Virus record (IMG/VR): IMGVR_UViG_2778261300_000006
Coordinates: 1-19,140 of that record
Length of the DNA: 19,140 bases
Source: a virus
Lineage: Duplodnaviria; Heunggongvirae; Uroviricota; Caudoviricetes
Reading direction: 5' to 3' (one strand)
Shown: piece after piece, positions 1 to 18,115 of the stretch
Layout: each line of letters starts with the position of its first letter
Position numbering within the stretch: the first letter of the stretch is position 1
Position numbers and translations under genes: made by a program
Notes under the pieces: model-generated
Seen by the model: the letters and a program-made list of their open reading frames with translations, nothing else
The model's database searches: none
Told to the model about the DNA's origin: nothing

Positions 1-201
1 TTAGGTAACTTCTTTACCTATTGCAACCGATAGATCTCGCAAAATCCGATAAGTCAAACGACCGCGAGGTAGTTCACTTTTACCAGCCCAGCGACTGACT
101 GCCTGGGTGACTGTTCGTGGTTCATAGCCCGCGTTAAGCGCGAACTGGCGCAAGCTACTGCCTCGTTCAACCAGCCGTGCCCGAACTTGTTGTTTGTTCA
201 T
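1..201 (-). CDS. Ner/Cro-like small HTH DNA-binding regulator
   Basis: 66-aa ORF (ATG at 201; the track's 207 start is GTG). The segment SLRQFALNAGYEPRTVTQAVSRWAGKSE resembles the Mu Ner / Nlp family pattern (SLSALSRQFGYAPTTLANALERHWPKGE) from memory. It is divergent from the plus-strand regulator. The stop codon sits at the window edge (1..3). Confidence 0.55.
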   Translation of the reverse strand: MNKQQVRARLVERGSSLRQFALNAGYEPRTVTQAVSRWAGKSELPRGRLTYRILRDLSVAIGKEVT

Positions 202-1775: not shown

Positions 1776-1777
1776 TC

Positions 1778-2983
1778 GTGGCGATTTCATTTGAGATGCT
1801 GACAGCTCTGTATCGTCGTATGGAATTCCAAGAGGGGTTTCGTGTCGGTTCGCTGTTGCTCTTAGATCAGTCCGATTGTGATCTGGTTGATACTTTGCTT
1901 GATGATCCTCGTGAATATGGTCTTTCTATTGATACAGGCACTATCGCTCCAGGTAACACGATCATCCTACGTGTGACGTCACCACGGAGTGGACTGGGAC
2001 TTGTGTTTTCCACCCATGAAAAATTGCTAAATGCTCCAAAGCATCAGTGCCTTGAGCCAGCTAATTACTTCATCCTAGAAACAAAATTTCGTAATGATGA
2101 TGAAGATATCCCCGTTTTCATCAGCAACTACCGGAAGATTCTCGAGTTCGTTAACCTGCTAAAAGAGGCCGCGGCCTACTTTGATAACTCAACTTGTCAG
2201 TTAGTTTTTCTGAAAAAAGAAGTTATCAAGCTATTACCGCACTTCGCTGCAGAAAATGTACAAAATTTGCAAAGGGAGTATCTTGATAACCTTATAGCTT
2301 GTTTCAATGATGATACCCATAAGGATCAGAAGCTAGATATTCTGATTGAAAGTATTCAAGCAGTTAGTGATGGAATTGATTCACCTCTAGTATTCGCTTA
2401 TTTACTGGACAATATTCAGCGTCTGCATGAAAAGTTTCTGAAAGGGTATCGTATCTACTCTTCTGGATTCTCTTATGACAAAGTAATGGATCAACTGCGT
2501 GCTGCAAAAGTCGAAGAAATGGGTAAAATCCACAAAGCGTTTTCAGATATCCAGAACCATATACTTGGCATTCCTGTTGCCTCTGTTATCGTAGCTACCC
2601 AATTCAAAGTGGCTACGAAATGGTCAGGCCAAGGGATAACAAACACAATAATTCTTCTGGGATGCATTTTTGCTGCAACGTTAATCTGGCTGGCACTTTC
2701 GAACCAGATGCAATCTATAAAGGCCTTAGGCGAAGAAATTGAATACAAAGAAAAACAGATTAATAAGGAATATTCCTTCATTAAAGATGACGTGGCTGGT
2801 GTATTTAGCAGTATTTCTGCGCGACTAGACACGCAGAAACGTACGTTCTGGATTATACGTGGTGTTCTAGTTATGGGAATTATTACCGCTATCACTGTTT
2901 ATTTTTGGTACACAAAACCAGCCCTTGACTTCATGCAGTACTTGATTCACTGCATGAAGTCTTACTATTCGGTCAAAAGTTGA
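1778..2983 (+). CDS. Membrane protein with a large N-terminal soluble domain and two C-terminal TM helices; cargo gene B
   Basis: GTG at 1778 with GAGG 7 nt upstream, 2 nt after the stop of gene A (operon coupling). Hydrophobic segments ITNTIILLGCIFAATLIWLAL and TFWIIRGVLVMGIITAITVYFWY are separated by a charged helical linker. No recognisable enzymatic motif. Confidence 0.55.
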   Translation: MAISFEMLTALYRRMEFQEGFRVGSLLLLDQSDCDLVDTLLDDPREYGLSIDTGTIAPGNTIILRVTSPRSGLGLVFSTHEKLLNAPKHQCLEPANYFILETKFRNDDEDIPVFISNYRKILEFVNLLKEAAAYFDNSTCQLVFLKKEVIKLLPHFAAENVQNLQREYLDNLIACFNDDTHKDQKLDILIESIQAVSDGIDSPLVFAYLLDNIQRLHEKFLKGYRIYSSGFSYDKVMDQLRAAKVEEMGKIHKAFSDIQNHILGIPVASVIVATQFKVATKWSGQGITNTIILLGCIFAATLIWLALSNQMQSIKALGEEIEYKEKQINKEYSFIKDDVAGVFSSISARLDTQKRTFWIIRGVLVMGIITAITVYFWYTKPALDFMQYLIHCMKSYYSVKS

Positions 2984-3743
2984 GGATAATGAGTTCCTTC
3001 TTGCGACTGGATTTGCCAGTGATCTTGAGGTTGTAGCTGATATCAACCGACTGAATATTTAGACCGTTGAATGCCTGCCGCATTTCCGGGATATCGTTCA
3101 CCGATATAATCATCTTCCCTTTGATCCTGCGTGCTAAATCTGCCATATGATCATAATTTTCTAGTCCGAACTCCACACCATAACCTTCCGTTCCCCAGTA
3201 TGGAGGGTCACAGTAGAACAACGTATGCGGGCGATCATATCGTTCTATGCACTGTTGCCAGTCCATGTGTTCTATGACCGTTCTGGAAAGCCGCAGGTGT
3301 GCCGCTGACAGTTCTTCTTCAATACGCAGCAGGTTGAAGCGTGGCGGGGATATGGTGGAGGTACCAAAGCTGTGCTCCGCCACCTTGCCCCCAAACGCCT
3401 GCTTCTGAAGGTAATAGAACCGTGCTGCACGCTGGATATCCGTCAGTGTTTCTTCCGGGGTGATCTGCAGCCATTTGTAGATCTGCCGGCTGACCAGCGC
3501 CCATTTGAACTGGCGTACAAATTCTTCCAGATGATGTTTTACCACCCGATACAGGTTCACCAGCTCACCGTTGATATCATTAATGACTTCGATCTTGCCG
3601 GGTACCTTAAGAAAATAGAGCGCTGCTGCCCCACAAAACGGCTCCACATAACATTCATGCGCCGGAAACAGCGGCAGGATGTGTTTTGCAAGGCGGCGTT
3701 TGCCACCAATCCATGGAACGATGGGTAATGTCTGCATTTTCAT
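2973..3743 (-). CDS. dam: DNA adenine methyltransferase (Dam-like, D12-class N6-adenine MTase)
   Basis: 256 aa. N-terminal AdoMet-binding motif (EPFCGAAALYF), catalytic DPPY motif (FYCDPPYWG) and WIGGKRRL near the N-terminus. The 3' end overlaps the 3' end of cargo gene B by 11 bp (convergent). Confidence 0.85.
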   Translation of the reverse strand: MKMQTLPIVPWIGGKRRLAKHILPLFPAHECYVEPFCGAAALYFLKVPGKIEVINDINGELVNLYRVVKHHLEEFVRQFKWALVSRQIYKWLQITPEETLTDIQRAARFYYLQKQAFGGKVAEHSFGTSTISPPRFNLLRIEEELSAAHLRLSRTVIEHMDWQQCIERYDRPHTLFYCDPPYWGTEGYGVEFGLENYDHMADLARRIKGKMIISVNDIPEMRQAFNGLNIQSVDISYNLKITGKSSRKKELIILNF

Positions 3744-3990
3744 AATCTGTAAGCCTTTTACAATTATAAAAAATATGGCAGGCTAGTCTGGTCTCGCGAG
3801 ACTGACTGAACCTTGGTCGGCTCACAGCGCATTCCTGTGGGGCGATGGCCAGCCCGGTGTTCGGGTACCGGGCTGGTCGTTCTTTCAAAGCCATCATGCA
3901 GTGCACGTTTACATCTTCACTATTAACGCTGTTTAAAATCCGTATCCCGCCACATTTGTGATGCTGTCTCCACCAAACGAGGAGACACAC

Positions 3991-4341
3991 ATGAAAAACC
4001 TGAAAAAATTCATTCCCCCTGTTAAAAAACCTCGCCTCAGCGGCTGGCTGCTGACCTCAGTGCTGCTGCTGGGCACCATCGCTCTGGTCTCGCCACAGCA
4101 GTTGCCTGTTGTGATCTACAAGCTGGCACTCATCACGCTGGCAGCAGTGCTGGGTTACTGGCTTGACCGTTCGCTCTTCCCCAAAGCCCGTCCCGGTCAG
4201 TACCTGAAACATGACGACAGACTGATGGCTGAAGGGCGTTTCCCTGTGCAGACCGGCCTTCACCTTGTATTTTCTGCTGCGTTAATCCGCCGTGCACTGA
4301 TTGTTGCAGCGGTCTGTCTGGCTGTGGCAACAGGACTGTGA
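3991..4341 (+). CDS. Holin-like small membrane protein (2-3 predicted TM segments)
   Basis: ATG at 3991 with RBS GAGGAG at 3979..3984. 116 aa with hydrophobic stretches WLLTSVLLLGTIALV, VVIYKLALITLAAVLGYWL and ALIRRALIVAAVCLAVATGL. Stop overlaps the start region of the downstream lysis gene. Confidence 0.5.
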   Translation: MKNLKKFIPPVKKPRLSGWLLTSVLLLGTIALVSPQQLPVVIYKLALITLAAVLGYWLDRSLFPKARPGQYLKHDDRLMAEGRFPVQTGLHLVFSAALIRRALIVAAVCLAVATGL

Positions 4342-4343
4342 CC

Positions 4344-4886
4344 ATGAACTGGCCTCAAATCACCCTCATTATTCTGTTCGCCTTTGGTCTGGGCGTAACC
4401 GCCATCAGGCACGGAGAACCACGTAACGATAAATACAGCTTCTGGTGGCAGCTTGCTGGCAACCTGGTGATTGTCTGGCTGCTCTGGTGTGGCGGCTTCT
4501 TCAGTCAGGCCCGCGCAGCGCAGCCTCCGCAGGCTGCGCTGCAGTATCGCGATGATGTGATCCGTAATGCCCGGCTTGAATGGGGACTGTCTGCGCCGGT
4601 GGCCGATTTCGCCGCGCAACTGCATCAGGAAAGCGGCTGGCGACCTGATGCGGTCTCGCCGGCTGGCGCTCAGGGACTGGCGCAGTTCATGCCTGCCACT
4701 GCCGACTGGATAAGCCAGTTGATACCGATGCTGAGCAGTCGTGAGCCGTTTAATCCTGCATGGGCTATCCGGGCGCTGGTCAGCTATGACCGCTGGCTGT
4801 GGCAGCGCGTAAGCGCCGCCAACGACTGCGAGCGTATGGCCATGACACTGTCGGGCTATAACGGTGGTCTACACCCTGCGCCGTAA
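4344..4886 (+). CDS. Signal-anchored lytic transglycosylase (endolysin-like, SLT domain), apparently truncated or frameshifted
   Basis: N-terminal hydrophobic segment (WPQITLIILFAFGLGVTAI) followed by the family-1 SLT signature ...HQESGWRPDAVSPAGAQGLAQFMPATADWI... and YNGG. The ORF stops right after the YNGG motif; see the 4891..5016 feature. Confidence 0.6.
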   Translation: MNWPQITLIILFAFGLGVTAIRHGEPRNDKYSFWWQLAGNLVIVWLLWCGGFFSQARAAQPPQAALQYRDDVIRNARLEWGLSAPVADFAAQLHQESGWRPDAVSPAGAQGLAQFMPATADWISQLIPMLSSREPFNPAWAIRALVSYDRWLWQRVSAANDCERMAMTLSGYNGGLHPAP

Positions 4887-4890
4887 GGGG

Positions 4891-5016
4891 ATGCCTGTTG
4901 CCGACAAGTACGACGGAGCCGGCGGCAAGGTGAAGTACTGCCGTTATACCGATATCTACAAAGTCGCCGTGGTTGGTGGCGATGCCGGGTATCTCATTAC
5001 CGGTATCAGTAAATAA
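4891..5016 (+). pseudogene. +1-frame continuation of the transglycosylase gene (frameshifted 3' portion or separate 41-aa ORF)
   Basis: The +1 frame reads ...YTLRRKGMPVADKYDGAGGKVKYCRYTDIYKVAVVGGDAGYLITGISK and ends at 5016, exactly where the RBS (AAGGAGG) of the next gene begins. The frame switch would lie near the ggtggt run around 4862..4870. Confidence 0.4.
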
Positions 5017-5025
5017 GGAGGCGTT

Positions 5026-5364
5026 ATGGGAACCACTCAGCAGGTCATTCTGATCACAACCGTAACGGCAGGGGCCGCACTGGCACAGCAGCGTTTTGTC
5101 GGGGCAGATAATACCCCCTGTAAAGCCGGTGCCGCAGCGCTCGGGGTTGCCGAAGTGGATGCTGTTACCGGCGACAGCACGCCGGTGAGCGTTCTGGGCA
5201 TTATTGCTGTCGAGGCCGGGGCCGCTGTCAGCCGTGGTGTGGCTGTTCAGTCAGATGCTCAGGCCAGAGCCGTGCCGCAGTCCGGCGACGGTAAATCCTG
5301 TGGTATTGCACTTGATGAAGCCGGGGGTGAAGGCGACGTCATTCGTATCCTGCGCGGGGTGTGA
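5026..5364 (+). CDS. Ala/Gly-rich small structural protein (possibly Mu gp35-like, DUF2190-type)
   Basis: ATG at 5026 with perfect RBS AAGGAGG. 112 aa. Its position immediately upstream of a DUF1320-like gene matches Mu late-operon order. The family call is from memory and weak. Confidence 0.45.
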   Translation: MGTTQQVILITTVTAGAALAQQRFVGADNTPCKAGAAALGVAEVDAVTGDSTPVSVLGIIAVEAGAAVSRGVAVQSDAQARAVPQSGDGKSCGIALDEAGGEGDVIRILRGV

Positions 5365-5365
5365 C

Positions 5366-5812
5366 ATGTACTGCACCCTGGAGGATTTGCTTGCGCAGGT
5401 GCCGGAACGAACGCTGATCGAGCTCACCAGTGAAGAGATGGACTTCGACTCGCCTGCAACAGTGAATACCCGTGTGGTGGACAGCTGTATCCGCTATGCC
5501 GACGAGCTGATTGATGCCCATCTGCGCGGACGCTATATCCTGCCACTGGCAGAGATACCGACTGTTCTGCGGGACATTGCCATCACGCTGGTCCGTTACC
5601 GGCTCTACGCCCGCCGCCCGGAAGGTGACCTCCCGGATACGGTGAAGGATGACCACAAAGAAGCGCTGCGGCAACTCAGGGAGTTACGTGATAACAGGCT
5701 CACGCTGGGGCTGCCGTCCACTCAGAAAGATGTGCCTGAGCCTGGCGAGTTTCGTGTACGCAGCCGCCCGGCCACTTTCGGCGGTCGTGACGGTTTACTG
5801 GAGAAATACTGA
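5366..5812 (+). CDS. Mu gp36-like protein (DUF1320 family; head-tail joining or tail completion)
   Basis: MYCTLEDLL...RYILPLAEIPTVLRDIAITLVRYRLYARRP...HKEALRQLRELRDNRLTLGL matches the recalled DUF1320 pattern (RY.LPL...P.VL..A.D.A.YRLY.RR...YK.A...L..I..G...LG). Start is 2 nt after the upstream stop. Confidence 0.65.
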   Translation: MYCTLEDLLAQVPERTLIELTSEEMDFDSPATVNTRVVDSCIRYADELIDAHLRGRYILPLAEIPTVLRDIAITLVRYRLYARRPEGDLPDTVKDDHKEALRQLRELRDNRLTLGLPSTQKDVPEPGEFRVRSRPATFGGRDGLLEKY

Positions 5813-6276
5813 TGAACGTTCTGCCCGTCCTTGATGCGGTACTGGCCCGGTTACGCGAGAAGCTGCCGCAACTGCAGGTGGAGTACTTCCCGGAGAAACC
5901 GGCTGAATATCGCCTGAACCATCCGGTTGGCGCGTTGCTGCTGAGCTATGCCGGTTCGCGCTTTGACAGGCCGGATGATACCGGTGCGGTGATCCAGTCT
6001 CAGACTATCCAGCTCTGCGTCACGGTGGTCTTCCGCCAGCTCAACGGTAAAAAAGGGGCGATTAATGTCCTGGATGCTGTCCGCCGCATTCTCGGCGGCC
6101 ACACCCCGCCCGGCTGCCGCCGCCGTATCTGGCTGACCCGCGAGGTGTTTATCGGTGAAGTCAGGGGGCTGTGGCAATACGCCCTCGACTTCGCGACTGA
6201 AAGCGTCTTTATCGAAGACAGCGATTTACCGTCCGGCCCGCTGTTAACCGAAGTGAACTATGAGGAAAGCGAGTGA
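5812..6276 (+). CDS. Mu gp37-like virion morphogenesis / tail completion protein (tentative)
   Basis: ATG overlaps the upstream stop (TGATG) and GGAG lies 8 nt upstream. 154 aa. Assignment is by position between the gp36-like gene and the sheath gene in Mu-like order. Confidence 0.45.
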   Translation: MNVLPVLDAVLARLREKLPQLQVEYFPEKPAEYRLNHPVGALLLSYAGSRFDRPDDTGAVIQSQTIQLCVTVVFRQLNGKKGAINVLDAVRRILGGHTPPGCRRRIWLTREVFIGEVRGLWQYALDFATESVFIEDSDLPSGPLLTEVNYEESE

Positions 6277-6527
6277 TGAAAGAATACCGCTATTCCGGCC
6301 CGGCCAGCGGCGTCACGCTGTCGGACGGAACCGAAATCCTGCTCTGGCCGGGGAAGACGGTTTCCCTGCCGGAGGAGCATGAATACGTGAAGGTACTGGT
6401 GGCGCTGAAGCATCTGACGCCGGTACCAGAAGATACTAAACCCGCCGTCACACCGGCTGTGCAGTCACCAAAGCGCAGAAGCAGCAGTGACAGCGAAGTG
6501 AAAACGGAGGACTCCCATGGCAGCTAA
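6276..6527 (+). CDS. Small protein with a disordered, charged C-terminus (Mu gp38-like position)
   Basis: ATG at 6276 overlaps the upstream TGA. 83 aa. The 3' end overlaps the sheath gene start by 11 nt. Confidence 0.4.
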   Translation: MKEYRYSGPASGVTLSDGTEILLWPGKTVSLPEEHEYVKVLVALKHLTPVPEDTKPAVTPAVQSPKRRSSSDSEVKTEDSHGS

Positions 6528-7944
6528 CTATCTGCATGGCGTCGAAACCATTGAGGTGGAAAACGGAGCCCGCCCGGTTAAAACGGTGAAATCTGCCGTT
6601 ATTGGCCTGATTGGTACCGCCCCGATGGGGGATGTCAATACGCTGGTACAGTGCCTGTCTGAGAAAGACGCTGCGGCATTTGGCAGCCAGTTCACCGGCT
6701 TTACCATTCCGCAGGCGCTGGATGCGATTTATGACCATGGTGCAGGCACCGTTCTGGTCATTAACGTACTCGATCCGTCTGTGCATAAAACCGCTGTGGT
6801 CAGTGAGAATGTGTCGTTCGACAAGGCGACAGGCAGAGCCCGGCTGGCTAATCCGGTGGTCGCGCAGCTGGTACTGAAACCGGACAGCGACGGTCAGCCT
6901 TATGTTGAAGGTCAGGACTACTCGCTTGATGCACAGACCGGGGTGATTACTAACCTGGGTAAAAGCATTGCTGCAGATGCAACGGTGAAGGCCAGCTATA
7001 ACTATGCTGATCCGACCAAAGTCACCCCGGCTGATATCATCGGTACCGTTAACGCTGCAGGCAACCGTACCGGCATGAAGCTGCTTAACGACAGTTTTAA
7101 CCTGTTTGGCTACTTCGCCAAAATCCTGATTGCTCCGGTATTCTGCACCCAGAACAGCGTCTCGGTTGAGCTTATCGCCATGGCTGAGAAACTGGGAGCA
7201 GTAACCTATATTGATGCGCCGGTTGGTACCACTTTTGCGCAGGCTCTGGCGGGACGTGGCCCGGAAGGCACCATTAACTTTAATACCAGCTCTGACCGTG
7301 TCCGCCTGTGCTACCCGCATGTGAAGGTATATGACCCGGTGACGAACACGGAGCGTCTGGAGCCACTGAGCCAGCGTGCGGCGGGCCTGCGTGCCAAAGT
7401 CGACCTGGACAAAGGGTACTGGTGGTCATCCTCCAATCAGGAAATTCTGGGGATCACCGGCGTGGAGCGCCAGCTGTCGGCAATGATTGACGATCCGCAG
7501 AGCGAGGTGAACCTGCTTAACGAACAGGGGATCACCACGGTATTCAGCAGTTACGGCAGCGGCCTTCGTCTGTGGGGTAACCGGACGGCAGCATGGCCAA
7601 CGGTCACCCATATGCGTAACTTTGAGAACGTTCGCCGCACCGGTGATGTGATCAACGAGTCCATTCGTTACTTCAGCCAGCAGTACATCGACATGCCGAT
7701 TACTCAGGCGCTGATTGATGCACTGACGGAGTCGGTCAACGCCTACGGTCGCAAAATGACTGGTGATGGTGCGGTACTGGGCTTCCGTTGCTGGTTTGAT
7801 CCGGCCCGCAATCCGGAGACGGAGCTGGCCGCCGGGCACCTGTTGCTGAGCTACAAATATACGCCACCACCGCCGCTGGAGCGACTGACGTTTGAGACTG
7901 AAATCACCTCGGAATACCTGTTAACCCTGAAAGGGGGCAACTGA
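6517..7944 (+). CDS. Contractile tail sheath protein
   Basis: 475 aa with RBS GGAGG 6 nt upstream. Size and position are right for a myovirus sheath, and it is followed immediately by a tube-sized gene. Sequence is reminiscent of Mu L / P2 FI-type sheath proteins. Confidence 0.85.
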   Translation: MAANYLHGVETIEVENGARPVKTVKSAVIGLIGTAPMGDVNTLVQCLSEKDAAAFGSQFTGFTIPQALDAIYDHGAGTVLVINVLDPSVHKTAVVSENVSFDKATGRARLANPVVAQLVLKPDSDGQPYVEGQDYSLDAQTGVITNLGKSIAADATVKASYNYADPTKVTPADIIGTVNAAGNRTGMKLLNDSFNLFGYFAKILIAPVFCTQNSVSVELIAMAEKLGAVTYIDAPVGTTFAQALAGRGPEGTINFNTSSDRVRLCYPHVKVYDPVTNTERLEPLSQRAAGLRAKVDLDKGYWWSSSNQEILGITGVERQLSAMIDDPQSEVNLLNEQGITTVFSSYGSGLRLWGNRTAAWPTVTHMRNFENVRRTGDVINESIRYFSQQYIDMPITQALIDALTESVNAYGRKMTGDGAVLGFRCWFDPARNPETELAAGHLLLSYKYTPPPPLERLTFETEITSEYLLTLKGGN

Positions 7945-8465
7945 TGTCAAAGATTGAGATAAACCGAATCACGAATGCCAACATCTATCTGGATGGTACT
8001 AACCTGCTGGGACGGGCTGAGGAAGTTAAACTCCCCGATGTCTCCATGATTATGCAGGAGCACAAGGCACTGGGGATGGTGGGTAAGGTGGAACTCCCGG
8101 CTGGTTTTGACAAACTGGAAGGCGAAATCAAATGGAACAGCTTTTACCGCGATGCGATGTTGTCTGCCGCGAACCCGTACAAGTCGCTGGCGCTGCAGTG
8201 TCGCTCCAGCGTCCAGCGCTACAGCTCGCAGGGGCTGATCGACGAAATCCCGCTGGTCACCTTCCTGACAATTATGTTCAAGAAGAACCCGCTGGGGACG
8301 TTCAAACAGCACGAGAACGCCGAGTTCTCCAGTAGCTTCACCTGCACGTATATCAGACAGGTACTGGATGGTGAAGAGTTGCTGCAACTGGACTATCTGG
8401 CCAACATCTTCCGCGTCGGTGGCGTTGATCAACTGACTGACTATCGAATCAATATCGGGGGCTGA
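7944..8465 (+). CDS. Tail tube protein
   Basis: 173 aa. ATG overlaps the sheath stop (TGATG) and RBS AAGGGGG lies upstream. Canonical position after the sheath. Confidence 0.8.
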   Translation: MSKIEINRITNANIYLDGTNLLGRAEEVKLPDVSMIMQEHKALGMVGKVELPAGFDKLEGEIKWNSFYRDAMLSAANPYKSLALQCRSSVQRYSSQGLIDEIPLVTFLTIMFKKNPLGTFKQHENAEFSSSFTCTYIRQVLDGEELLQLDYLANIFRVGGVDQLTDYRINIGG

Positions 8466-8467
8466 CG

Positions 8468-8749
8468 GTGAGTGTTGAACTGACTGACAAAGGAGGGCGA
8501 TGTGCGTCACTGGGCATGTCAAATGGTACGTGGTTTACCCTCCTTGATATTCCGGGGGTGGAGACCCTCTTTAATACCCGTAAAACCAATGACCCGATTG
8601 ACTGCACACGTTCAAAGGCCCGCAAACTGGCCGATTTGATTGAAGCATGGGAGCCGCCCGACCAGTGGTTCTCCGGCACCGGCAACTCTGAGGGAAAGGC
8701 GCTTCTCATCGCTTTCCTGCGTAACTGCAAGGGTTTTCGCACTTGCTGA
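8468..8749 (+). CDS. Hypothetical small protein between tube and chaperone genes
   Basis: 93-aa ORF with GTG start at 8468 (alternative in-frame ATG at 8516). No recognisable family. Followed directly by a terminator-like hairpin. Confidence 0.3.
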   Translation: MSVELTDKGGRCASLGMSNGTWFTLLDIPGVETLFNTRKTNDPIDCTRSKARKLADLIEAWEPPDQWFSGTGNSEGKALLIAFLRNCKGFRTC

Positions 8750-8756
8750 CATCACA

Positions 8757-8778
8757 GGGGCTCCGGCCCCTTCTTTTT
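8757..8778 (+). terminator. Rho-independent terminator-like hairpin inside the tail operon
   Basis: GGGGC-tccg-GCCCC stem-loop (8757..8770) followed by TTCTTTTT (8771..8778). Confidence 0.45.
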
Positions 8779-8846
8779 AATCCCCTTTAATATCCGTCAC
8801 GTCCACCGCCAGACATACTGCTCTGAATTTACAAAGGAGTATGATC

Positions 8847-9182
8847 ATGTCACAGACCCAGTCCGATACTTTTACGCTGTCTTATCCTTTCACCACTGCT
8901 GCAGGTACCAGAATTGAACAGATTGAACTGAAACGCCTGACAGTAAAAGACCTGAAGCAGGTGCGCAAAATCAACAAAGACCCGACAGACTGGGACGAAC
9001 CACTGATTGCCCGTAGCACCGGTATCCTCCCGGAAGACCTCGATAACATGGATCTTGCCGACTATATGGAGCTGCAGAAACGATTTCAGAAAATCACTGG
9101 GCTGGGCAAGAGCGACAAAAACACTGATGCAGGTGCAGGGCCTGCTGGCGAGATGGTTCAGGTTTCAACCGGGGGAGATTGA
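8847..9182 (+). CDS. Tail assembly chaperone (P2 gpE / lambda gpG-type), upstream frame
   Basis: ATG at 8847 with AAGGAG 7 nt upstream (the 8841 ATG is too close to the RBS). Small acidic protein directly upstream of the tape measure gene, with an overlapping out-of-frame ORF, the hallmark of the conserved chaperone frameshift pair. Confidence 0.65.
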   Translation: MSQTQSDTFTLSYPFTTAAGTRIEQIELKRLTVKDLKQVRKINKDPTDWDEPLIARSTGILPEDLDNMDLADYMELQKRFQKITGLGKSDKNTDAGAGPAGEMVQVSTGGD

Positions 9183-9264
9183 TGCCCTCGATACTGACGA
9201 TCTGGAGATGTGGCTGGAGCAGGCTGAAGAGCAAATCAAAAGCGAGTTCGGCGACAATCAGTAA
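9007..9264 (+). CDS. Frameshift extension of the tail assembly chaperone (E'-like C-terminal extension)
   Basis: ORF in the +1 frame relative to 8847..9182, overlapping its 3' end. It encodes an acidic helical tail (...IDALDTDDLEMWLEQAEEQIKSEFGDNQ). It has no plausible independent start (TTG in the track). Only the 3' part (roughly 9170..9264) would be translated after the shift. Confidence 0.45.
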   Translation: MPVAPVSSRKTSITWILPTIWSCRNDFRKSLGWARATKTLMQVQGLLARWFRFQPGEIDALDTDDLEMWLEQAEEQIKSEFGDNQ

Positions 9265-9357
9265 CAACGTATCACTTAACAGCCGCCAGTCGCGGCTGTT
9301 CTGCATGGGTTTCAGACACTTCCCTTCCGTTTTTTTTGCTTTCAGAGGATAGCCACC

Positions 9358-11823
9358 GTGGCCAGTGAATTTTCAGTCGGCGTCATTATTGGCGGCATTG
9401 TCGGGAGCAGCTTCCGCTCAGCCGTCAGTGGCACCCGACGCGCCCTTGATTCCCTTGGTGATACCTCCCGCCGTCTGCAGGAACGCCAGAATGCCTTAAC
9501 CCGGGCAACAGAACGTTATGGTCAACTGGGTTCTTCCCGGATGCAGCATCTCAACAGCGAGTTGCTGCGGGTAAGCCGCACCATGGAGCAAATTGAACGT
9601 CAGCAGCGCCGTCTGTCAGCAGTATCAGCCACCGGTGATGCGTTGAAGGCTAACCGCCTGGCGCTCTATGGTCAGGGTGCAGAAACCTATGCTATTGGCA
9701 GAACGCTGGGCGCACCGGTCATGGCCTCGGTTAAACAATATGCCTCGTTTGAATCACAGTTGCGGGATATCAGTGTCACAGGAGACCTGGATGCAAAACA
9801 GGAACGTGCAATTGGCCAGGCTATCAGACAGGCCTCGCTGAAGGTTAACCAACTGCAGGAGTCTCTGTTAGGGGGAGTCGGACAATTAGTTGCTGATGGT
9901 ATGGCCCCCGAACGGGCAGCAACGTTTGCAGAGATGCTTGGAAAGACCGCTACAGCAACCAAAGCCGATATGACCGACCTTGCCAAAATGACTTATGCCT
10001 TCAGCGATGCACTCAGAATCACTGATGCGAAAGAACTTGAACAGGCGTTTGGTATTGCGGCAACAGGAGCCAAACTTGGGTCATTTGAGCTGAAGGATAT
10101 GGCAAAAGCATTACCCGGTATGGCTAAAGCCTTCGCTGCTCGTGGTATTTATGGAAAAGATGCGATTACCCAGATTGTTGCCAGTCTGGAGGTCGGTAAA
10201 GGTAGTGGCTCTGCAGAGGAAGCGGTCACCAATATGTCCAACTGGCTGGCAGCAATGGGCCGCGGAGATACCATCCAGAAATATGCTAAAGCCGGGGTGG
10301 ATTACCAGGGGTCAATGCAGAATTACGTCGCTCAGGGTTTTTCGCAGTACGAAGCTTCACTGATGATTGCCAACCGTTTTATCGACAGTAAAGGCAAAGC
10401 GTTCTTGCAGCAATGGAAAGCTGCAGGAGCAAGAGGCGATCAGGAAGGTCAGCAGAAACTCATGGAGTCATTTGGTCTGGCTGAGGTCTTTACCGATATT
10501 CAGACTGTCAACCATTTACTGTCAATGCGACAGGGCTGGGATAAATACCTTTCCAGTAAGCAGGAAATGAATACTCCGGCTGCAATGTCTACCCTGGATA
10601 AGGATGCTGCAAAGCAGAATGATACGCTTGAAGGTCGCTGGCGCAGAATGCAGATCGGCTTTAATGATTCTGCTATCAGCATCGGGCAATCCTTGCGTCC
10701 GGCTTTGCTCCAGTTGGGTGAAACATTTATTCCTTTAATGGACAGTGTTGGCAAATGGATAGCGGCAAATCCGCAGCTCGTCAGCAGCACCATAAAGGTT
10801 GTGGGCGCATTACTCGCTTTCAGGATGGCCACTATCGGTCTCAAGCTTGGGCTGAATCTCCTTCTTTCCCCCTTTGTAAGCGTCTGGAAAAATGCTGTTT
10901 TACTTCGGGCCAACTGGCTTCGTCTGACGCTCGCACTGGGGGAAGGCGGTAAACTCCGCTGGCTGGTGACAGGCTTTGGTGCTGTCGCCAGAGGAGCCAG
11001 AACACTGGGTGGTGTGCTCTCAGGGGGGCTGGTTCGCGGAATTATGAGCGCCGGGCGTGCCGTTCTCTGGATTGGCCGGGCGCTGCTGATGAATCCCATC
11101 GGTCTCGTTATCACCGCCGTCGCGGCAGCAGCTTACCTTATCTACCGCAACTGGGGCGCAGTCAGTAGCTGGTTTAAACAGCGCTGGGCTGACATTCAGG
11201 AAGCCTTTAACGGCGGCATCGTGGGAATTGGTAAACTGCTGGTTAACTGGTCTCCGGCTGGTCTGCTTTATAAAGCCTTTGCGGCTGCGCTGAAATATCT
11301 CGGCGTTGATCTGCCGGCGAAATTCACCGACTTCGGTGGTCATCTTATTGACGGGTTGATAAATGGCATCAGAAACAAATGGGCGTCACTCAAAACCAGC
11401 GTAACCGGAATGGGTGACAGCATCAGTGACTGGTTCAGCGAAAAGCTGGGCATCCATTCACCGAGTCGCGTGTTTATGGGCTTTGGTGACAATATCGCGC
11501 AGGGTGCCGCCATTGGCCTGCAACGGACCACTCCGCTTGCTGCACTGGCCGGGCAGCGCCTGGCCGCTGAAATGACACCGGATGTTCCCCGTATCCCGTC
11601 GCCGGAAATCATGGCTGCCGGATATTCAGGCCGTGGCGCAACTGCAACCGGCGGTGGAGCGTCTGGCGGTATCCAGGTCAGCTTTAATCCTCAGTTTTTC
11701 CTCAATGGTAAGGAAACCGCAGCGCCTGCCGGGCTGGCTGGTGCCCTGAATATGAGCCTGCATGAGCTGGAAAAAATGCTGGAGCGTCTGCTGGCTCAGA
11801 AACAACGTAAGGAGTACAGCTGA
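9358..11823 (+). CDS. Tail tape measure protein
   Basis: 821 aa. GTG start with AGAGGA 8 nt upstream. Long helical N-terminal region, Gly/Ala-rich hydrophobic central segments and overall architecture typical of tape measure proteins. Confidence 0.85.
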   Translation: MASEFSVGVIIGGIVGSSFRSAVSGTRRALDSLGDTSRRLQERQNALTRATERYGQLGSSRMQHLNSELLRVSRTMEQIERQQRRLSAVSATGDALKANRLALYGQGAETYAIGRTLGAPVMASVKQYASFESQLRDISVTGDLDAKQERAIGQAIRQASLKVNQLQESLLGGVGQLVADGMAPERAATFAEMLGKTATATKADMTDLAKMTYAFSDALRITDAKELEQAFGIAATGAKLGSFELKDMAKALPGMAKAFAARGIYGKDAITQIVASLEVGKGSGSAEEAVTNMSNWLAAMGRGDTIQKYAKAGVDYQGSMQNYVAQGFSQYEASLMIANRFIDSKGKAFLQQWKAAGARGDQEGQQKLMESFGLAEVFTDIQTVNHLLSMRQGWDKYLSSKQEMNTPAAMSTLDKDAAKQNDTLEGRWRRMQIGFNDSAISIGQSLRPALLQLGETFIPLMDSVGKWIAANPQLVSSTIKVVGALLAFRMATIGLKLGLNLLLSPFVSVWKNAVLLRANWLRLTLALGEGGKLRWLVTGFGAVARGARTLGGVLSGGLVRGIMSAGRAVLWIGRALLMNPIGLVITAVAAAAYLIYRNWGAVSSWFKQRWADIQEAFNGGIVGIGKLLVNWSPAGLLYKAFAAALKYLGVDLPAKFTDFGGHLIDGLINGIRNKWASLKTSVTGMGDSISDWFSEKLGIHSPSRVFMGFGDNIAQGAAIGLQRTTPLAALAGQRLAAEMTPDVPRIPSPEIMAAGYSGRGATATGGGASGGIQVSFNPQFFLNGKETAAPAGLAGALNMSLHELEKMLERLLAQKQRKEYS

Positions 11824-12707
11824 TGTTTGCCGTACTGGGTGATATTGAGTTTGAACTGATTACCTACTGGGACGGCTTCGAGGCCACGTTTGGCGTCGAT
11901 TATGCGGAGCATGCCCGCATCGAGGGTAAACCCGGCCTGCAGTTTGTCGGCGACAGGCTGGACGAAATCCAGATAAGCCTGGTCTTCCATCAGCATTATT
12001 GTGTGCCCGACGTGGAGCTGGCGAGAGTGCGAACAGCCATGAAGGCCCATCAGGCACTGGCGCTGGTCTTCGGCAACGGTGACTATCGCGGCTGGTTCGT
12101 GATTACCGATGTGACCGCAACCAGCGAGCAGACAGACAGCACCGGTAACGTGCTGGCTGTCAGTGCCACCGTGTCTCTCCGGGAATACACCGGTGACCCG
12201 AAAAATCCTCTGCAACCGCCGGCAATACGCAGGCAGGTTCCCGGTGCCGGAGCTGTATCGGGTGCTGTTCCATCGCCTTCCGGGGTGGCGCAGTTCGTCC
12301 GTAACGGCGTCAACTATGCGAAACAGGCGCAGTCTGTACTCCAGACCACTATCAGTGCCGTTCGGGTGGCGCAGAAAATGAAGGGTAACCCCGTTGTCGC
12401 GCTGACCCGTGTGCCTGGACTGATGAGCGGACTGGGTAATATATCCGGAGCTCTGGGGAAAAGTGTTCCGGCGTTTAATGCACTCTCTGAATCCATGCCC
12501 GATGCCATCAGTCTGGCCAGAACAGCCAGTGAGGCAGCCACGTATGTACAGCAGGCGCAGTCGGCGCTGAGTGGTGTGGACAAAAGAAATATTGCAGGTG
12601 CTCTGGATACCGTTTCCGGGCAGCTTAACGCCGCCGGCACAGCATTCAACCGCATGTCTCCGGGATTAAGTGCAATGGCCGCCAGAATACTGACGAGGAG
12701 TGTGTGA
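11823..12707 (+). CDS. P2 gpU-like tail protein (DNA-circulation-type N-terminal domain)
   Basis: ATG overlaps the tape-measure stop, with AAGGAG 8 nt upstream. N-terminus MFAVLGDIEFELI resembles gpU-family starts. Position is after the tape measure. Confidence 0.55.
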   Translation: MFAVLGDIEFELITYWDGFEATFGVDYAEHARIEGKPGLQFVGDRLDEIQISLVFHQHYCVPDVELARVRTAMKAHQALALVFGNGDYRGWFVITDVTATSEQTDSTGNVLAVSATVSLREYTGDPKNPLQPPAIRRQVPGAGAVSGAVPSPSGVAQFVRNGVNYAKQAQSVLQTTISAVRVAQKMKGNPVVALTRVPGLMSGLGNISGALGKSVPAFNALSESMPDAISLARTASEAATYVQQAQSALSGVDKRNIAGALDTVSGQLNAAGTAFNRMSPGLSAMAARILTRSV

Positions 12708-12919
12708 TGTTTCTTGAACATATTACCCGTGACGGAGAGCGCTGGGATTCGCTGGCATGGCAGTACTACGGTGACCCGCTGGGCTATCCCCGGATTATTG
12801 CAGCCAATCCGCACGTGGCCATTACGCCGGTGCTGCCCTCCGGGGTGTTGTTACTGATCCCGGTTATTGAGGCTGAAGATGCCCGCACAGAAGAGGATGT
12901 TGCTCCATGGCTGAGATAA
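12707..12919 (+). CDS. Tail protein X-like (P2 gpX family)
   Basis: 70 aa. ATG overlaps the upstream stop, with GAGGAG 6 nt upstream. Pattern W..LAWQYYGDPLGY..IIAANP......LP.G..L.IP resembles the gpX / LysM-like family. Confidence 0.6.
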   Translation: MFLEHITRDGERWDSLAWQYYGDPLGYPRIIAANPHVAITPVLPSGVLLLIPVIEAEDARTEEDVAPWLR

Positions 12920-14061
12920 ACAGTACTGCGCAAGACGTATCAGCGTTAACCGGCGTCAGCGATGTGCTGACGCCGGTGTTCACTCTGTGGTATCTGCAGA
13001 AAAATATCACCTCTGATATCGCGCCTTATGTCACCCGTGTGACCTGGAGCGATAACATCAAAAATGAGTCCGATACCATTGAGGTGGAGCTGGATGACAC
13101 CGATGGTCGCTGGCTGGATAAGTGGTATCCGGGCAAGGGTGACACGCTGACGCTGAAAATGGGTTATCAGGGCGAGAAACTGCTGTCCTGCGGTACATTC
13201 TCAATAGACGAGATCGAAGTGAGTTCGCCCGCGTCCGTTGTCGCTATCCGTGGGGTGGCCACCTCGGTTAACAGTGCTCTGCGGACTAAATCCAGCCGTG
13301 GTTTTGAGAACACCACGCTGGCAGCTGTTGCGGGGCGGATTGCCAGAAAGCACCGACTGAAACTGGTGGGCAGCATTGAGTCCATCAAAATCGACCGGGT
13401 GACCCAGTATGCTGAAACCGACGTGGGTTTTCTGCGCCGGCTGGCCAGCGAGTATGGTTATGCAGTGAAAGTGGTCAGTGACCAGTTGATTTTTTCTCAT
13501 CTGGCCACACTGCGCAGTCAGGAGCCGGTCAGGCAGTTAAAACCGCAGGATGTGGCCCGCTTTTCCCTGCGTGACACCATCAACCGGGTCTATAAATCTG
13601 CAAAGGTAAAACACCAGAAAAGCAGCAGTAAAAAACTGATCGTCTACGAAGCTGATGGTGGTACCCGTGAAAGCGACAAAAAGCTCAAAGGTGGTAAGGT
13701 TACCAGCGCTGACTCACTTAAAGTTAACAGCCGTGTCAGCGACCCGGACAGTGCCCGGATTAAAGCGGATTCAGCACTGGCCAGACATAACGAATACCAG
13801 CAGAACGGCTCCCTGACGCTGACGGGAACGCCTCAACTGACAGCAGGCAACAAAATTGAACTGGTGGGCTTTGGACAGTTATCCGGTCCATGGCTGATAA
13901 TCACTGCCCGCCATGCGTTTGAGCGTAACAGCGGCTACACCACAGAGCTGGAAGTGGCACGGGGGCCAGTCACAAGAGGGAAAAAACAAAAAACTCAGAA
14001 ACTCACGGTTTATCACCCGGATGGCAGTACATCGACGGTGATTAAGGAGAAGAAAAAATGA
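12907..14061 (+). CDS. P2 gpD-like / Mu P-like tail protein (baseplate hub-type)
   Basis: 384 aa. Position between the gpX-like and spike genes. Lys-rich C-terminus. 3' end overlaps the next start (ATGA). Confidence 0.65.
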   Translation: MAEINSTAQDVSALTGVSDVLTPVFTLWYLQKNITSDIAPYVTRVTWSDNIKNESDTIEVELDDTDGRWLDKWYPGKGDTLTLKMGYQGEKLLSCGTFSIDEIEVSSPASVVAIRGVATSVNSALRTKSSRGFENTTLAAVAGRIARKHRLKLVGSIESIKIDRVTQYAETDVGFLRRLASEYGYAVKVVSDQLIFSHLATLRSQEPVRQLKPQDVARFSLRDTINRVYKSAKVKHQKSSSKKLIVYEADGGTRESDKKLKGGKVTSADSLKVNSRVSDPDSARIKADSALARHNEYQQNGSLTLTGTPQLTAGNKIELVGFGQLSGPWLIITARHAFERNSGYTTELEVARGPVTRGKKQKTQKLTVYHPDGSTSTVIKEKKK

Positions 14062-14585
14062 CTGGTGTCACCCGTCAGGTCGGTACGGTCAGTGCCGTTG
14101 ATGCCGACAGGGTTCAGGCCCGCGTTCGTCTGCCTGAATGCGATAATCTGCGCACAAACTGGCTTAACGTGCTACAGCGCAATACCCAGGATAACAAGGA
14201 TTACTGGCTCCCTGACGTGGGGGAGCAGGTTGAGGTGCTGCTCGATGCCAACGGCGAGGATGGTGTTATTCTGGGCGCGGTGTACTCAGACGTCGATAAA
14301 CCGCCGTTCAGTGATAAAAACGTCCGGGGTACGAAATACGCTGATGGCGCGGAGTTCAGTTATAACCGCGCGACCCATACGCTGACGGTCAGAGGAGGTA
14401 TTGAGCGTATCGTGGTGGAGGTTGCCGCTGATATCTCTCTCAAAGGGAAAAAACTCGACCTCACGGGAGTTACCACGATCAACGGCCCCGCGACACTCAA
14501 TGGTGATCTGGAAATCAACGGAAGCGCCCATGCAACGGGTAACATATTTGCTGATGGTCAGAACTCTAATCACCATTCCCATTGA
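14058..14585 (+). CDS. Baseplate central spike protein (gpV-like)
   Basis: 175 aa with AAGGAG RBS. gpV-like N-terminal OB-fold region. His-rich C-terminal apex (...GQNSNHHSH). Confidence 0.75.
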   Translation: MTGVTRQVGTVSAVDADRVQARVRLPECDNLRTNWLNVLQRNTQDNKDYWLPDVGEQVEVLLDANGEDGVILGAVYSDVDKPPFSDKNVRGTKYADGAEFSYNRATHTLTVRGGIERIVVEVAADISLKGKKLDLTGVTTINGPATLNGDLEINGSAHATGNIFADGQNSNHHSH

Positions 14586-14641
14586 ACCTTCTTAAACGCC
14601 TTTAATATCGGCGCTTACTTCCCGGGGGCAATACTGCCTCC

Positions 14642-14989
14642 ATGAAAACGACCTCAGTATTCTGGCAACCAGCTCTGCAGGCTCCCGGCGAAATCGTCCG
14701 GGGGCTGGATGATATCCGGCAGTCCATCCAGATCATCCTGCGGACTCCCCGCGGCAGCGACCCGCATCGCCCGGAGTTCGGCAGCAATCTGCACCTTTAT
14801 ATCGACTGGCCTGTCGGCCGGGCCATTCCGCATGTGGTTCGCGAATCCGTCGATGCCATCAGGCGCTGGGAACCCCGCTGCCAGCTTATGTCGGTTAAAC
14901 CCGCCGTCGACGGCGAACATCTTACGCTCCGGGTGAGCTGGAAAGGCTCAGACGGACAACCCCGTACTCAGGAACTGCTATGGCGCTGA
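14642..14989 (+). CDS. Baseplate wedge protein (gpW / gp25-like)
   Basis: 115 aa. Pattern ...IRQSIQIILRTPRGSDPHRPEFGSNLHLYIDWP... is typical of the GPW_gp25 family. 3' end overlaps the J-like start. Confidence 0.75.
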   Translation: MKTTSVFWQPALQAPGEIVRGLDDIRQSIQIILRTPRGSDPHRPEFGSNLHLYIDWPVGRAIPHVVRESVDAIRRWEPRCQLMSVKPAVDGEHLTLRVSWKGSDGQPRTQELLWR

Positions 14990-16083
14990 CAGAACCCGAT
15001 TTTATTGAACGCGATGCCGATAAAATCACGGCAGAAATGATTGCGAAGTATGAAGCGGATACCGGAAAAACGCTGTACCCGGCACAGGCTGAACGTCTGC
15101 TGATTGACCTGTGGGCCTATCGCGAAATGCTGGTCAGGGTGGCAGTACAGGAGGCGGCGAAGCAGAATCTGGTCGCTTTTTCCCGTGAGCCGATGATTGA
15201 TTACCTCGGTGAACTGGTCGGTGTATACCGCCTTGCCGCGCAGCCTGCCACCACCACACTTCAGTTCTCTGTGGATGAGGCACTGGCCATTGATGTGCTG
15301 ATCCCGGCAGGCACCCGCGTCAGCGCTTCCGACAGTATTATTTTTGCCACCGATACAGACGTGGTGCTGAAGGCCGGATTGCTGCTGGTCAATGTCACGG
15401 CCACCTGTACCGAGCCGGGTACCGCTGGCAACGGCTGGCAACCGGCGCAGGTCAGTCAGTTACTCGATGAGATTGATAACATTGACCTGCTGGTGACCAA
15501 TCTGACGGCCAGCTCTGGCGGTTCAGAGCAGGAAGACGATGACCGGCTCCGGGAGCGTATCAGGCTGGCCCCGGAGTCATTCACCAATGCCGGAAGCCGT
15601 GGTGCATACCGTTTTCATGCTATGGGGGCGCATCCCGGCATTGTCGACGTTGCTGTTCTTTCTCCCGCTCCCGGCACTGTCGAGCTGTATCCGCTGCTCA
15701 GCACTGGTCTGCCGGACAGCAGTATCCTCACTCTGGTAGAGAGTTTCTGTTCTGACGAAAAAGTCAGACCACTCACTGATACCGTGCGGGCTAAAACACC
15801 TGTTCAGGTGGATTACACCATTGAAGCCAGGATTACGATCTATCGTGATCAGGATGCAAGGTTGGTAAAGGACAACGCTAACAGCGCCATACAGAACTGG
15901 GTGGCATCCCGTACCGCCACGCTGGGGCGCGATATTGTTCCCAGCCAGATTATCAGCGTGTTGTCCGTTTCCGGGGTGTACCAGGTCGAACTGGTGACAC
16001 CGGCACTGAGGGTGGTGGCAGAAAACGAATGGGCAAACTGTACGGCGATCACTCTTAACATGACCGGGGTGTCCGATGGCTAA
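14980..16083 (+). CDS. Baseplate J-like protein
   Basis: 367 aa with AGGA RBS. Position and size match gpJ / Mu gp47. Translationally coupled to both neighbours. Confidence 0.8.
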   Translation: MALTEPDFIERDADKITAEMIAKYEADTGKTLYPAQAERLLIDLWAYREMLVRVAVQEAAKQNLVAFSREPMIDYLGELVGVYRLAAQPATTTLQFSVDEALAIDVLIPAGTRVSASDSIIFATDTDVVLKAGLLLVNVTATCTEPGTAGNGWQPAQVSQLLDEIDNIDLLVTNLTASSGGSEQEDDDRLRERIRLAPESFTNAGSRGAYRFHAMGAHPGIVDVAVLSPAPGTVELYPLLSTGLPDSSILTLVESFCSDEKVRPLTDTVRAKTPVQVDYTIEARITIYRDQDARLVKDNANSAIQNWVASRTATLGRDIVPSQIISVLSVSGVYQVELVTPALRVVAENEWANCTAITLNMTGVSDG

Positions 16084-16654
16084 GGTGCTACAACTCCCGC
16101 CACCGCTTGAGGGTGATATCAGTCTCAGAACGCTGGGAAGACTGGCCGGACGGCTGGATAACATCGACCTGAGCGTACTGATGGTCGGTCTCGTCGATAT
16201 TGTCGACAGTTCCGCGCTGCCATGGCTTGGCGAGCAGTTCTCGCTGTTCGGCGATGGCTGGGAACTGGCGGAATCGGACGATGTACGCCGCATGCTTATC
16301 AAATCCGCTATCGAGCTACACCGCTATAAAGGAACACCGTGGTCAATCCGGGAAATTATCCGCCGTTTTGGCTTCGGCGAAGTGGATCTGATTGAAGGTA
16401 CGGGGCAGATTGGCTATGACGGCAGACACACGTACAACGGGCTTTTCGTCCATGGTGATGCACAAGCCTGGGCAGTCTATCGCGTCATCTTTCAACAACC
16501 CATCACTAACGATCAGGCGGCGCTGTTACGTCAGACGCTTGCTGCCTTTGCTCCGGCTCGCTGTCATCTGGCAAGTCTGGAATATCAGTCTGTCGCCATT
16601 CGATACAACAGTACTACCTGTTATGACGGTAGTTACAACCACGGGAGCAGTTAA
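16076..16654 (+). CDS. Baseplate/tail protein (P2 gpI-like, Mu gp48-like)
   Basis: 192 aa. ATG overlaps the J stop. Immediately upstream of the tail fiber gene. Confidence 0.7.
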   Translation: MAKVLQLPPPLEGDISLRTLGRLAGRLDNIDLSVLMVGLVDIVDSSALPWLGEQFSLFGDGWELAESDDVRRMLIKSAIELHRYKGTPWSIREIIRRFGFGEVDLIEGTGQIGYDGRHTYNGLFVHGDAQAWAVYRVIFQQPITNDQAALLRQTLAAFAPARCHLASLEYQSVAIRYNSTTCYDGSYNHGSS

Positions 16655-16656
16655 TT

Positions 16657-17622
16657 ATGGCAAATCTACCCGAAACCCCGCAGTGGGAAAGCGGCATCTA
16701 CCAGATTGAGGTCTCTGACCCCGTTCTGGGCGGACCTGACGGAATTTCTAACCGCCAGGCTAAACAACTGGCCAGCCGAACGTCATACCTCAAACAGAAG
16801 GTCGAAAAAAGCGGAACAGACCTGGCTGCACATATCGCGGCAGTTGACCCGCATACCCAGTACGCGACGAAAGCCAGTCCGACATTCACCGGCACACCAA
16901 CAGCACCTACACCTGCAAATGGTGATAACAGCAAAAAGCTGGCGACGACGGAGTTTGTGGCCAAAGCACTTGCGGCACTTGCAGGCAGCGCCCCTGAGAC
17001 ACTGGATACGCTTAAAGAGCTGGCTGACGCTCTCGGTAATGATCCAAACTTTGCGACTACGGTACTGAACAAGCTGGCGGAAAAGCTGGCTAAAGACCAG
17101 AACGGCGCAGATATTCCTGAGCCTGCGCTGTTTGTCAAAAACCTTGGTTTGGGGGAAGGCTCTGCACTGCCCGTTGGTGTGCCTGTTCCGTGGCCCTCAG
17201 CCACACCGCCAGCAGGGTGGCTGAAATGTAACGGAGCAGCATTTTCTTCTGAAATGTACCCCAAACTGGCAAAGGCTTACCCCGCGAATAAATTACCGGA
17301 TTTACGGGGTGAGTTTATTCGTGGCTGGGATGACGGGCGCGGGATTGATCCTGGTCGCCAGTTGCTTGGGTGGCAGAAAGGTACTTTGGTTGGTGGTAGA
17401 GATGACAATGATGCCGCAGTTGATATTTCATATATGAGTAACGGAAATAGTATTGATTACGGTGGCGATAAAACATTTTCAACGAATTACCGGAGTGATT
17501 ATTTATGGTATGCAATTCTGGGTAACGTCACTGGTCGTGCCAAAGCTGCTTTAAGTGGGTCCTTTTTTAATGTAACTCGTCCACGCAACATCGCCTTTAA
17601 CTACATTGTGAGAGCAGCATAG
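16657..17622 (+). CDS. Tail fiber protein: constant N-terminal part fused to variable C-terminal cassette 1 (tail-collar domain)
   Basis: 321 aa. The constant region contains the conserved fiber segment SPTFTGTPTAPTPANGDNSKKLATTEFVAKALAALAGSAPETLDTLKELADALGNDPNFATT (P2 gpH-like). The variable part begins at about 17146 with the tail-collar-type motif GWLKCNGAAFSSEMYPKLAKAYP...LPDLRGEF and ends ...RPRNIAFNYIVRAA. Confidence 0.8.
   Translation: MANLPETPQWESGIYQIEVSDPVLGGPDGISNRQAKQLASRTSYLKQKVEKSGTDLAAHIAAVDPHTQYATKASPTFTGTPTAPTPANGDNSKKLATTEFVAKALAALAGSAPETLDTLKELADALGNDPNFATTVLNKLAEKLAKDQNGADIPEPALFVKNLGLGEGSALPVGVPVPWPSATPPAGWLKCNGAAFSSEMYPKLAKAYPANKLPDLRGEFIRGWDDGRGIDPGRQLLGWQKGTLVGGRDDNDAAVDISYMSNGNSIDYGGDKTFSTNYRSDYLWYAILGNVTGRAKAALSGSFFNVTRPRNIAFNYIVRAA
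17132..17157. other. Putative Gin/Hin/Cin-type recombination crossover site A, at the constant/variable junction of the fiber gene
   Basis: ttgtcaaaaacc-tt-ggtttgggggaa: a 12+2+12 bp arrangement whose left half matches the recalled hix/gix half-site (TTCTTGAAAACC / TTCCTGTAAACC) at 9 of 12 positions. Homology with the downstream repeat copy starts exactly at the central dinucleotide. Confidence 0.5.
17144..17345 (+). repeat. Repeat copy A (5' conserved part of variable fiber cassette 1)
   Basis: About 200 bp nearly identical to 17628..17829 (direct) and to the reverse complement of 19035..19140 (inverted; truncated by the window end). Confidence 0.85.
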
Positions 17623-18109: not shown

Positions 18110-18115
18110 TTATAT

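Follow-up and report, generated by a model that had tools for sequence, protein, structure and literature searches.

The 19,140-nt stretch of DNA analysed here (the window) is, with a probability that we put at roughly 93%, a defective BcepMu-like (Bcepmuvirus) transposable prophage of Escherichia coli, in which the apparent frameshift of the endolysin gene at position 4869/4870 is the novel joint of one 8,515-bp internal deletion. The deletion is recent, private to one lineage and situated in a prophage that is dead; this is ordinary prophage decay of a kind already known, and it holds no new biology.

The SLT-type endolysin ORF (4344..4886, + strand; start at ATG 4344 or GTG 4338) ends with a TAA at 4884-4886, directly after a GYNGG motif. 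It is overlapped in the +1 frame by an ORF of 50 aa that runs on the same strand from GTG 4864 to the TAA at 5014-5016. This GTG is fortuitous, and apart from it the frame of 4871-5016 has neither a start codon nor an RBS. Immediately thereafter follow the RBS AAGGAGG (5015-5021) and, from ATG 5026, the native and intact DUF2190/cement-protein gene (5026-5364, +; Pfam PF09956, E 2e-13). A preliminary description of this locus had noted an endolysin gene broken inside its catalytic domain around 4862-4870, an SLT ORF stopping right after YNGG, and a +1 ORF ending at the RBS of the next gene. The sequence and the ORF list agree with all of this, the frame change being found at 4869/4870. The same description regarded the +1 frame as a continuation of the SLT domain; however, PHROGs, tblastn and an alignment to PDB 3bjq identify the encoded peptide as the C-terminus of the major capsid protein.

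Accordingly, 4871..5016 (+) is a 3' remnant of the major capsid gene. Of the 317 codons of this gene, the window retains the last 48 (270-317) and the stop codon. The T at 4870 supplies the first base of codon 270, the retained part starts at capsid nt 809 of 954, and the gene's own start is gone. While a Pfam scan of the 50-aa ORF returned no match, the 48 capsid residues match the PHROGs family phrog_1005 ('major head protein') over profile positions 267-314 of 315 (E 5e-14). In tblastn searches of phage genomes, residues 3-50 of the ORF were 100% identical to Escherichia phage PhiKM and 94% identical to Klebsiella phage KP12, and the same residues shared 51% identity with the annotated major head proteins of BcepMu (gp34) and phiE255; in those phages, the gene that was hit lies ~8.4 kb from the endolysin gene. 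Besides, a full-length 317-aa homologue matches PDB 3bjq from end to end (E 6.5e-35), the C-terminal stretch included. The genomic position fits as well: in nine of the ten neighbourhoods shown, the 317-aa capsid gene ends 10 nt upstream of the DUF2190 gene, and the window has the same spacing between capsid stop and DUF2190 gene as intact phages.

Conversely, the true C-terminus of the enzyme is missing. Alignment identified it as a stretch of 66 aa (GWVQRDRRL...CVASG) that is present in all intact 240-246-aa homologues; when compared with the whole window by tblastn, it had no match beside the break in any frame. Its sole match in the window, at 12543-12695 (+), lies 7.7 kb away (34.5% over 55 aa, E 0.014) and corresponds, in frame, to the C-terminus of a gpU-like tail gene (11823-12707). 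Given the weak E-value of 0.014, this similarity was treated as probably due to chance and not as the lost SLT end. A PDB sequence search with the 66 residues alone gave no match. The lost part may have carried the conserved E-x3-Y motif of Slt70 (ENRHY versus ETRGY).

The preliminary description had also named an alternative, in which homologous enzymes end naturally after YNGG and 4891..5016 is an independent small gene. However, homologues measure 240-246 aa (242-246 aa in nine of ten neighbourhoods), and it is the 317-aa capsid gene that is called directly upstream of the DUF2190 gene in nine of ten neighbourhoods. Neither the original hypothesis nor this alternative therefore matches what is present.

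We placed the joint by base-level comparison with KP12, PhiKM, the intact E. coli MS20655 prophage and the assembly neighbourhoods (designated L) L025, L015/L020 and L004. The deletion junction falls on 4869..4870, where the two parental sequences have only the dinucleotide CT in common. The SLT parent reads ...GGTGGTCT up to the joint and GGGCTGG beyond it; the capsid parent arrives with ...TTCGGCT and proceeds with ACACCCTG. Written out further, the SLT parent has ...AACGGTGGTCT before and GGGCTGGG after the joint, the capsid parent ...CCTTCGGCT before and ACACCCTGCG after it, and the window itself ...AACGGTGGTCTACACCCTGCG. Window positions 4-4870 align with the MS20655 prophage (NZ_CP082080.1) at 99.96% identity (2 mismatches, 0 gaps) and positions 4869-17336 at 99.75% (31 mismatches in 12,468 nt, 0 gaps). 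Between these two arms, NZ_CP082080.1 contains exactly 8,515 bp (record positions 1087601-1096115) that are absent from the window. Two draft genomes, moreover, contain intact prophages (L021 and L025) that match the left arm at 100.000% identity over 4,867 nt. With 0-2 mismatches per 4,867 nt on one side and 31 per 12,468 nt on the other, the homology of both arms to intact prophages is far beyond chance. Comparison with KP12, PhiKM and the E. coli M9682-C1 prophage gives the same picture, in that homology reaches 4870 within the SLT gene and resumes at 4869/4870 within the capsid gene; in these intact relatives, as in MS20655, the two halves lie ~8.4-8.5 kb apart and have lysis and head genes between them. 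The deleted DNA as carried by L025 (8,113 of the 8,515 nt) has no copy elsewhere in the window.

The left breakpoint corresponds to codon 176 of the 242-aa endolysin gene and the right breakpoint to capsid codon 269/270. Because 8,515 equals 3n+1, the capsid tail is read out of frame: past the joint, the endolysin frame continues with L176 (CTG changed to CTA), followed by HPAP and the stop codon. The truncated product of 180 aa hence consists of residues 1-176 of the 242-aa parent enzyme, WP_001104433.1, plus these four foreign residues, which are capsid-gene DNA read in the wrong frame. The true capsid frame, from Y270 onward, is left as a 48-codon orphan that ends at the native capsid stop (5014-5016).

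This bears directly on the explanation favoured in the preliminary description, namely a single-nucleotide indel, either real or a sequencing error, near the GGTGGT run of one continuous SLT gene whose remainder would lie in the +1 frame. True, a change of frame occurs at 4869/4870, and the ORF that comes next does abut the RBS of the following gene, just as this explanation would have it; yet the +1 peptide is capsid and not SLT, the true 66-aa SLT C-terminus is absent from all frames near the break, and an indel would call for homologous endolysins with a C-terminus reading YTLRRKGMPVADKYDG... Nor is there, as in a pseudogene created by a small indel, homology to the same protein downstream in another frame. 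Instead of one nucleotide, the window lacks 8,515 bp that near-identical intact prophages possess, and a sequencing error does not account for the frame change either. We consider an indel of any origin extremely unlikely.

More improbable still is programmed recoding, which the preliminary description had mentioned as well and by which a +1 or -2 ribosomal frameshift would yield a fusion of the SLT protein with the capsid tail. The overlap of ORFs in two frames is what such an event would require, but the two-frame layout occurs in no relative and the downstream frame belongs to another gene; in every intact phage, the two parts are from genes 8.5 kb apart, and a muralytic enzyme would have no plausible use for 48 residues of capsid tail. 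A conserved frameshift is also at odds with the homologues, each of which is encoded by a single ORF of 240-246 aa, and with the distribution of the junction itself, which was found in none of the 5,426 complete E. coli genomes, nor in IMG/VR or the JGI metagenomes.

As for this distribution, a 501-bp probe centred on the joint was compared with the complete E. coli genomes: 641 of the 5,426 hold both halves, and in 0 of the 5,426 are the halves joined. The junction 24-mer had no exact match in GTDB species representatives, IMG/VR or JGI metagenomes; a control pattern for the intact SLT sequence gave 61 IMG/VR matches. The exact 180-aa product was called on three contigs from separately assembled public runs (Logan), possibly all of one clone, and the Logan contig L003 (SRR29736265) is 100% identical to window positions 1-14886. 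The junction is thus private to one lineage. The evidence for the joint is at the level of assemblies, and it was seen solely in short-read assemblies from Logan, with no occurrence in a curated complete genome, as might be expected if a chimeric contig had connected two parts of an intact prophage. Against such an assembly artefact speak the identical truncated protein on three contigs of separately assembled runs and the 100% agreement of the window with L003 over 14,886 nt. Furthermore, a de Bruijn assembler bridges a 2-nt overlap only when reads contain the joint, so that an overlap as short as this one should be unbridgeable for a k-mer graph assembler without junction-containing reads. 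Taken together, an artefact appears very unlikely, and we regard the 8,515-bp deletion as genuine.

With respect to its origin, the deletion probably arose by an illegitimate event, i.e. microhomology-mediated end joining or replication slippage. Because neither joint of the element (4869/4870 or the one in flgL described below) is located at a phage end, we favour illegitimate microhomology recombination over a deletion mediated by the phage transposase. We also considered an invertase acting at pseudo-sites. The gix/hix sites of such enzymes have an inverted-repeat core of the AAACC..GGTTT type, and the sequences at the breakpoints, judged by eye, lack a core of this kind. As the flanks still show 99.75-100% identity to intact prophages and none of the remaining ORFs is disrupted, the deletion would seem to be a very recent event.

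According to annotations and family scans, the deletion removed nine whole genes and two gene parts. The window has lost the endolysin C-terminus (the last 66 residues), a 216-aa Rz-like spanin (phrog_1403), two small genes for proteins of 108 aa and 103 aa, a Mu gp27-type small terminase together with the large terminase, a Mu-type portal, the Mu F-like and Mu G-like morphogenesis genes, a 371-aa head maturation protease (phrog_976), and capsid codons 1-269. From this gene content we infer that the element would be unable to build heads, package DNA or complete lysis, which makes it a dead prophage rather than a phage with a subtly recoded endolysin.

Among the lysis genes, the holin gene is the only one to have been fully kept. 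It encodes an intact protein of 116 aa (3991..4341, +; Pfam PF13272 Holin_2-3, E 1e-40; phrog_1528 over its full length, E 4e-54) and sits in the left arm that L021 and L025 share without a mismatch. The adjoining endolysin remnant still matches the SLT family (PF01464, E 7.5e-13, 48.5 bits at a cut-off of 21.3) and phrog_669 endolysins (E 7e-54). It retains two N-terminal hydrophobic segments (residues 5-22 and 37-53, from hydropathy) as well as the motifs E96-S97, GLAQ (111-114) and GYNGG (171-175), which align to E478-S479, GLMQ and AYNAG of Slt70. The SLT match, however, covers profile positions 21-98 of 117, compared with 21-111 in the intact homologue, and since it stops at position 98 the domain is truncated: the part of the lysozyme-like fold that follows the YNxG motif is gone. 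The SLT ORF of the window is, as judged from its sequence, a gene fragment and not a functional member of the family. With the C-terminal quarter of the sequence missing, including the end of the lysozyme-like fold, the truncated enzyme is most likely misfolded, inactive or unstable. The suggestion in the preliminary description of an inactivated endolysin and a lysis-attenuated element hence holds as a general conclusion, in that the spanin and the endolysin C-terminus are gone and the enzyme is probably inactive, but the mechanism put forward for it was wrong.

The comparison with the catalytic domain of E. coli Slt70 (PDB 1qsa/1sly), the prototype of SLT/GH23 family 1, leads to the same expectation. 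The Glu-Ser, GLxQ and (A/G)YNxG motifs align in the window protein, which stops at the equivalent of about residue 556-558 of the 618 residues of Slt70; as it ends at the equivalent of about residue 556, the C-terminal part of the fold is absent. At the other terminus, the window protein has hydrophobic segments where Slt70 has superhelical domains. In BcepMu, gp22 has been described as an endolysin with an SLT domain (PMC2628397).

There is a second break at the left edge of the window. The ner-like first early gene (1..201, -) lacks its last eight codons and is fused to the host gene flgL, with the joint at window positions 4-7 (within L003 5625-5704). Alignment to an intact flgL (L031) and to the intact phage (L025) put the flgL breakpoint at nt 793 of 954 and uncovered a 4-nt microhomology, GGTA. 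The host is E. coli, as flgK-flgL matches E. coli chromosomes at 100% identity as far as L003 position 5664, which equals window position 7. With flgL fused to a 3'-truncated ner-like gene, this locus has neither the early operon (transposase A, B, Gam, GemA, Mor) nor the left phage end. As the early operon and Mor are missing in cis, the late operon, including the remaining holin and tail genes, is probably silent. The disruption of flgL may, in turn, render the strain non-motile. GCA_028360455.1 has a prophage whose left arm is identical and which is located beside yedP and the fli operon (L006, L025). If the yedP/fli site were ancestral, the flgL joint could mark an end of a large inversion and not a deletion.

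To the right of the DUF2190 gene, the rest of the late operon (5366..17622, +) comprises the gp36-like and gp37-like genes and those for sheath, tube, chaperone, tape measure, baseplate and tail fibre, as established from the ORF list, Pfam and the MS20655 alignment. Since this region is colinear with the intact prophage and free of gaps, all of its ORFs are intact, and so every gene from DUF2190 to the tail fibre has been preserved. Within it, the gene for the tail assembly chaperone (111 aa, PF10109) has an overlapping ORF of 45 aa after it, the two spanning 8847-9264. This is the usual layout of a programmed -1 frameshift pair of the P2 E/E' kind. The tape measure (9358-11823) has 821 aa here and in many relatives, and 983 or 1,070 aa in others (M9682-C1, L011, L018); the length differences sit in the internally repetitive part, and such a polymorphism would change tail length. 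At the right end (17138-19140, both strands), the window enters a multi-cassette invertible tail-fibre region in which several cassettes for fibre C-termini with a Collar domain share ~210-bp repeats in both orientations, and in which a tail-fibre assembly gene is located at 18116-18733 (-). The relatives L005-L010 and MS20655 have three to five fibre cassettes in differing order, closely followed by a serine invertase; the window stops short of this gene.

On the other side of the element, a cargo slot (768-2983, +) with two genes is located between the repressor and the Dam-like methylase. One gene encodes an NA37/NdpA-like nucleoid-associated protein (PF04245, E 1e-80). The other encodes a 401-aa protein that belongs to phrog_5023 and has a weak PADLOC match to KwaA of the Kiwa defence system (E 8e-5, residues 262-394). 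As related phages have different genes in this position, the slot may be a defence 'moron'.

The pattern of what was lost and what was kept raises the question of adaptive domestication, i.e. whether a head-less derivative has been kept as the producer of tailocin-like, tail-only particles or for its cargo genes. The deletion has taken terminase, portal, protease and most of the capsid gene; the tail ORFs, from the gp36-like gene up to the tail fibre, are all intact, as are the invertible fibre cassettes and the holin, and the combination of absent head and packaging functions with an intact tail module is indeed that of a tailocin. Intactness is, however, to be expected anyway after a recent deletion, at a divergence of 0-0.25%, and a tailocin would also possess a working lysis cassette and its own regulator, of which the endolysin, the Rz-like spanin, Mor and the early region are defective or missing in cis. 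Besides, the junction is found in one lineage, and so there is no sign of long-term retention. Domestication is therefore a very unlikely explanation, and recent decay remains the preferred one. A similarly long shot, judged from gene content, would be that the element is a nascent tail-only BcepMu-like form (devoid of head, packaging and transposition genes, and equipped with a contractile tail, invertible fibres and a holin) in which a tailocin-like entity could arise, or that the membrane-anchored SLT fragment of 176 residues might still be muralytic.

For annotation practice, the locus teaches that a 'frameshifted' gene accompanied by an ORF that ends at the next RBS can result from a large deletion that joined two unrelated genes. 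Comparing the downstream frame with the families of neighbouring genes settles such cases quickly.

The family to which the element belongs is well represented: in the assembly collection, an identical DUF2190 protein is indexed in 43,001 blocks and the 401-aa cargo protein in 3,555. Intact relatives carry, on one strand, Mor, GemA, Gam, B, transposase A, DUF3102, an HTH gene and the ner-like gene, and, onward from there, repressor, cargo genes, methylase, holin, SLT gene, spanin, head genes, tail genes, fibre cassettes and invertase. Both arms of the window share 84-100% DNA identity and the same gene order with the intact Bcepmuvirus prophages and phages MS20655 (NZ_CP082080.1:1072522-1109392), PhiKM (PQ738613) and KP12 (OM835952). 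Common to all is the succession of repressor, cargo slot, Dam-like methylase, holin, SLT endolysin, capsid 3' end, DUF2190, gp36/gp37-like genes and a P2-like contractile tail module. In contrast to these relatives, the window is without the 8,515 bp that separate SLT codon 176 from capsid codon 270 and, on its left side, without anything beyond the ner-like gene. Burkholderia phage BcepMu itself (gp21 holin, gp22 SLT endolysin, gp34 major head protein) is no more than distantly related, and its endolysin and capsid genes have counterparts in the window that are fragments fused out of frame.

Another member of the family has taken a comparable course. In L023 (CP057281.1, 12826-14222), the SLT gene is lost from the equivalent of window position 4603 onward and the capsid 3' end has been joined to tail genes located farther downstream; in addition, the transposase region is missing and an IS (DDE_Tnp_1) has entered the fibre region. 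L023 is an independently decayed relative and shows that the family decays repeatedly via different deletions. In a wider context, the cryptic or defective prophages of E. coli K-12 and of the O157 Sakai pool (PMC2669165) have likewise had lysis and morphogenesis genes deleted and contain chimeric pseudogene joints. Compared with those, decay in the window has been caught very early, with flanks that are still 99.75-100% identical to intact phages and with surviving ORFs that are whole.
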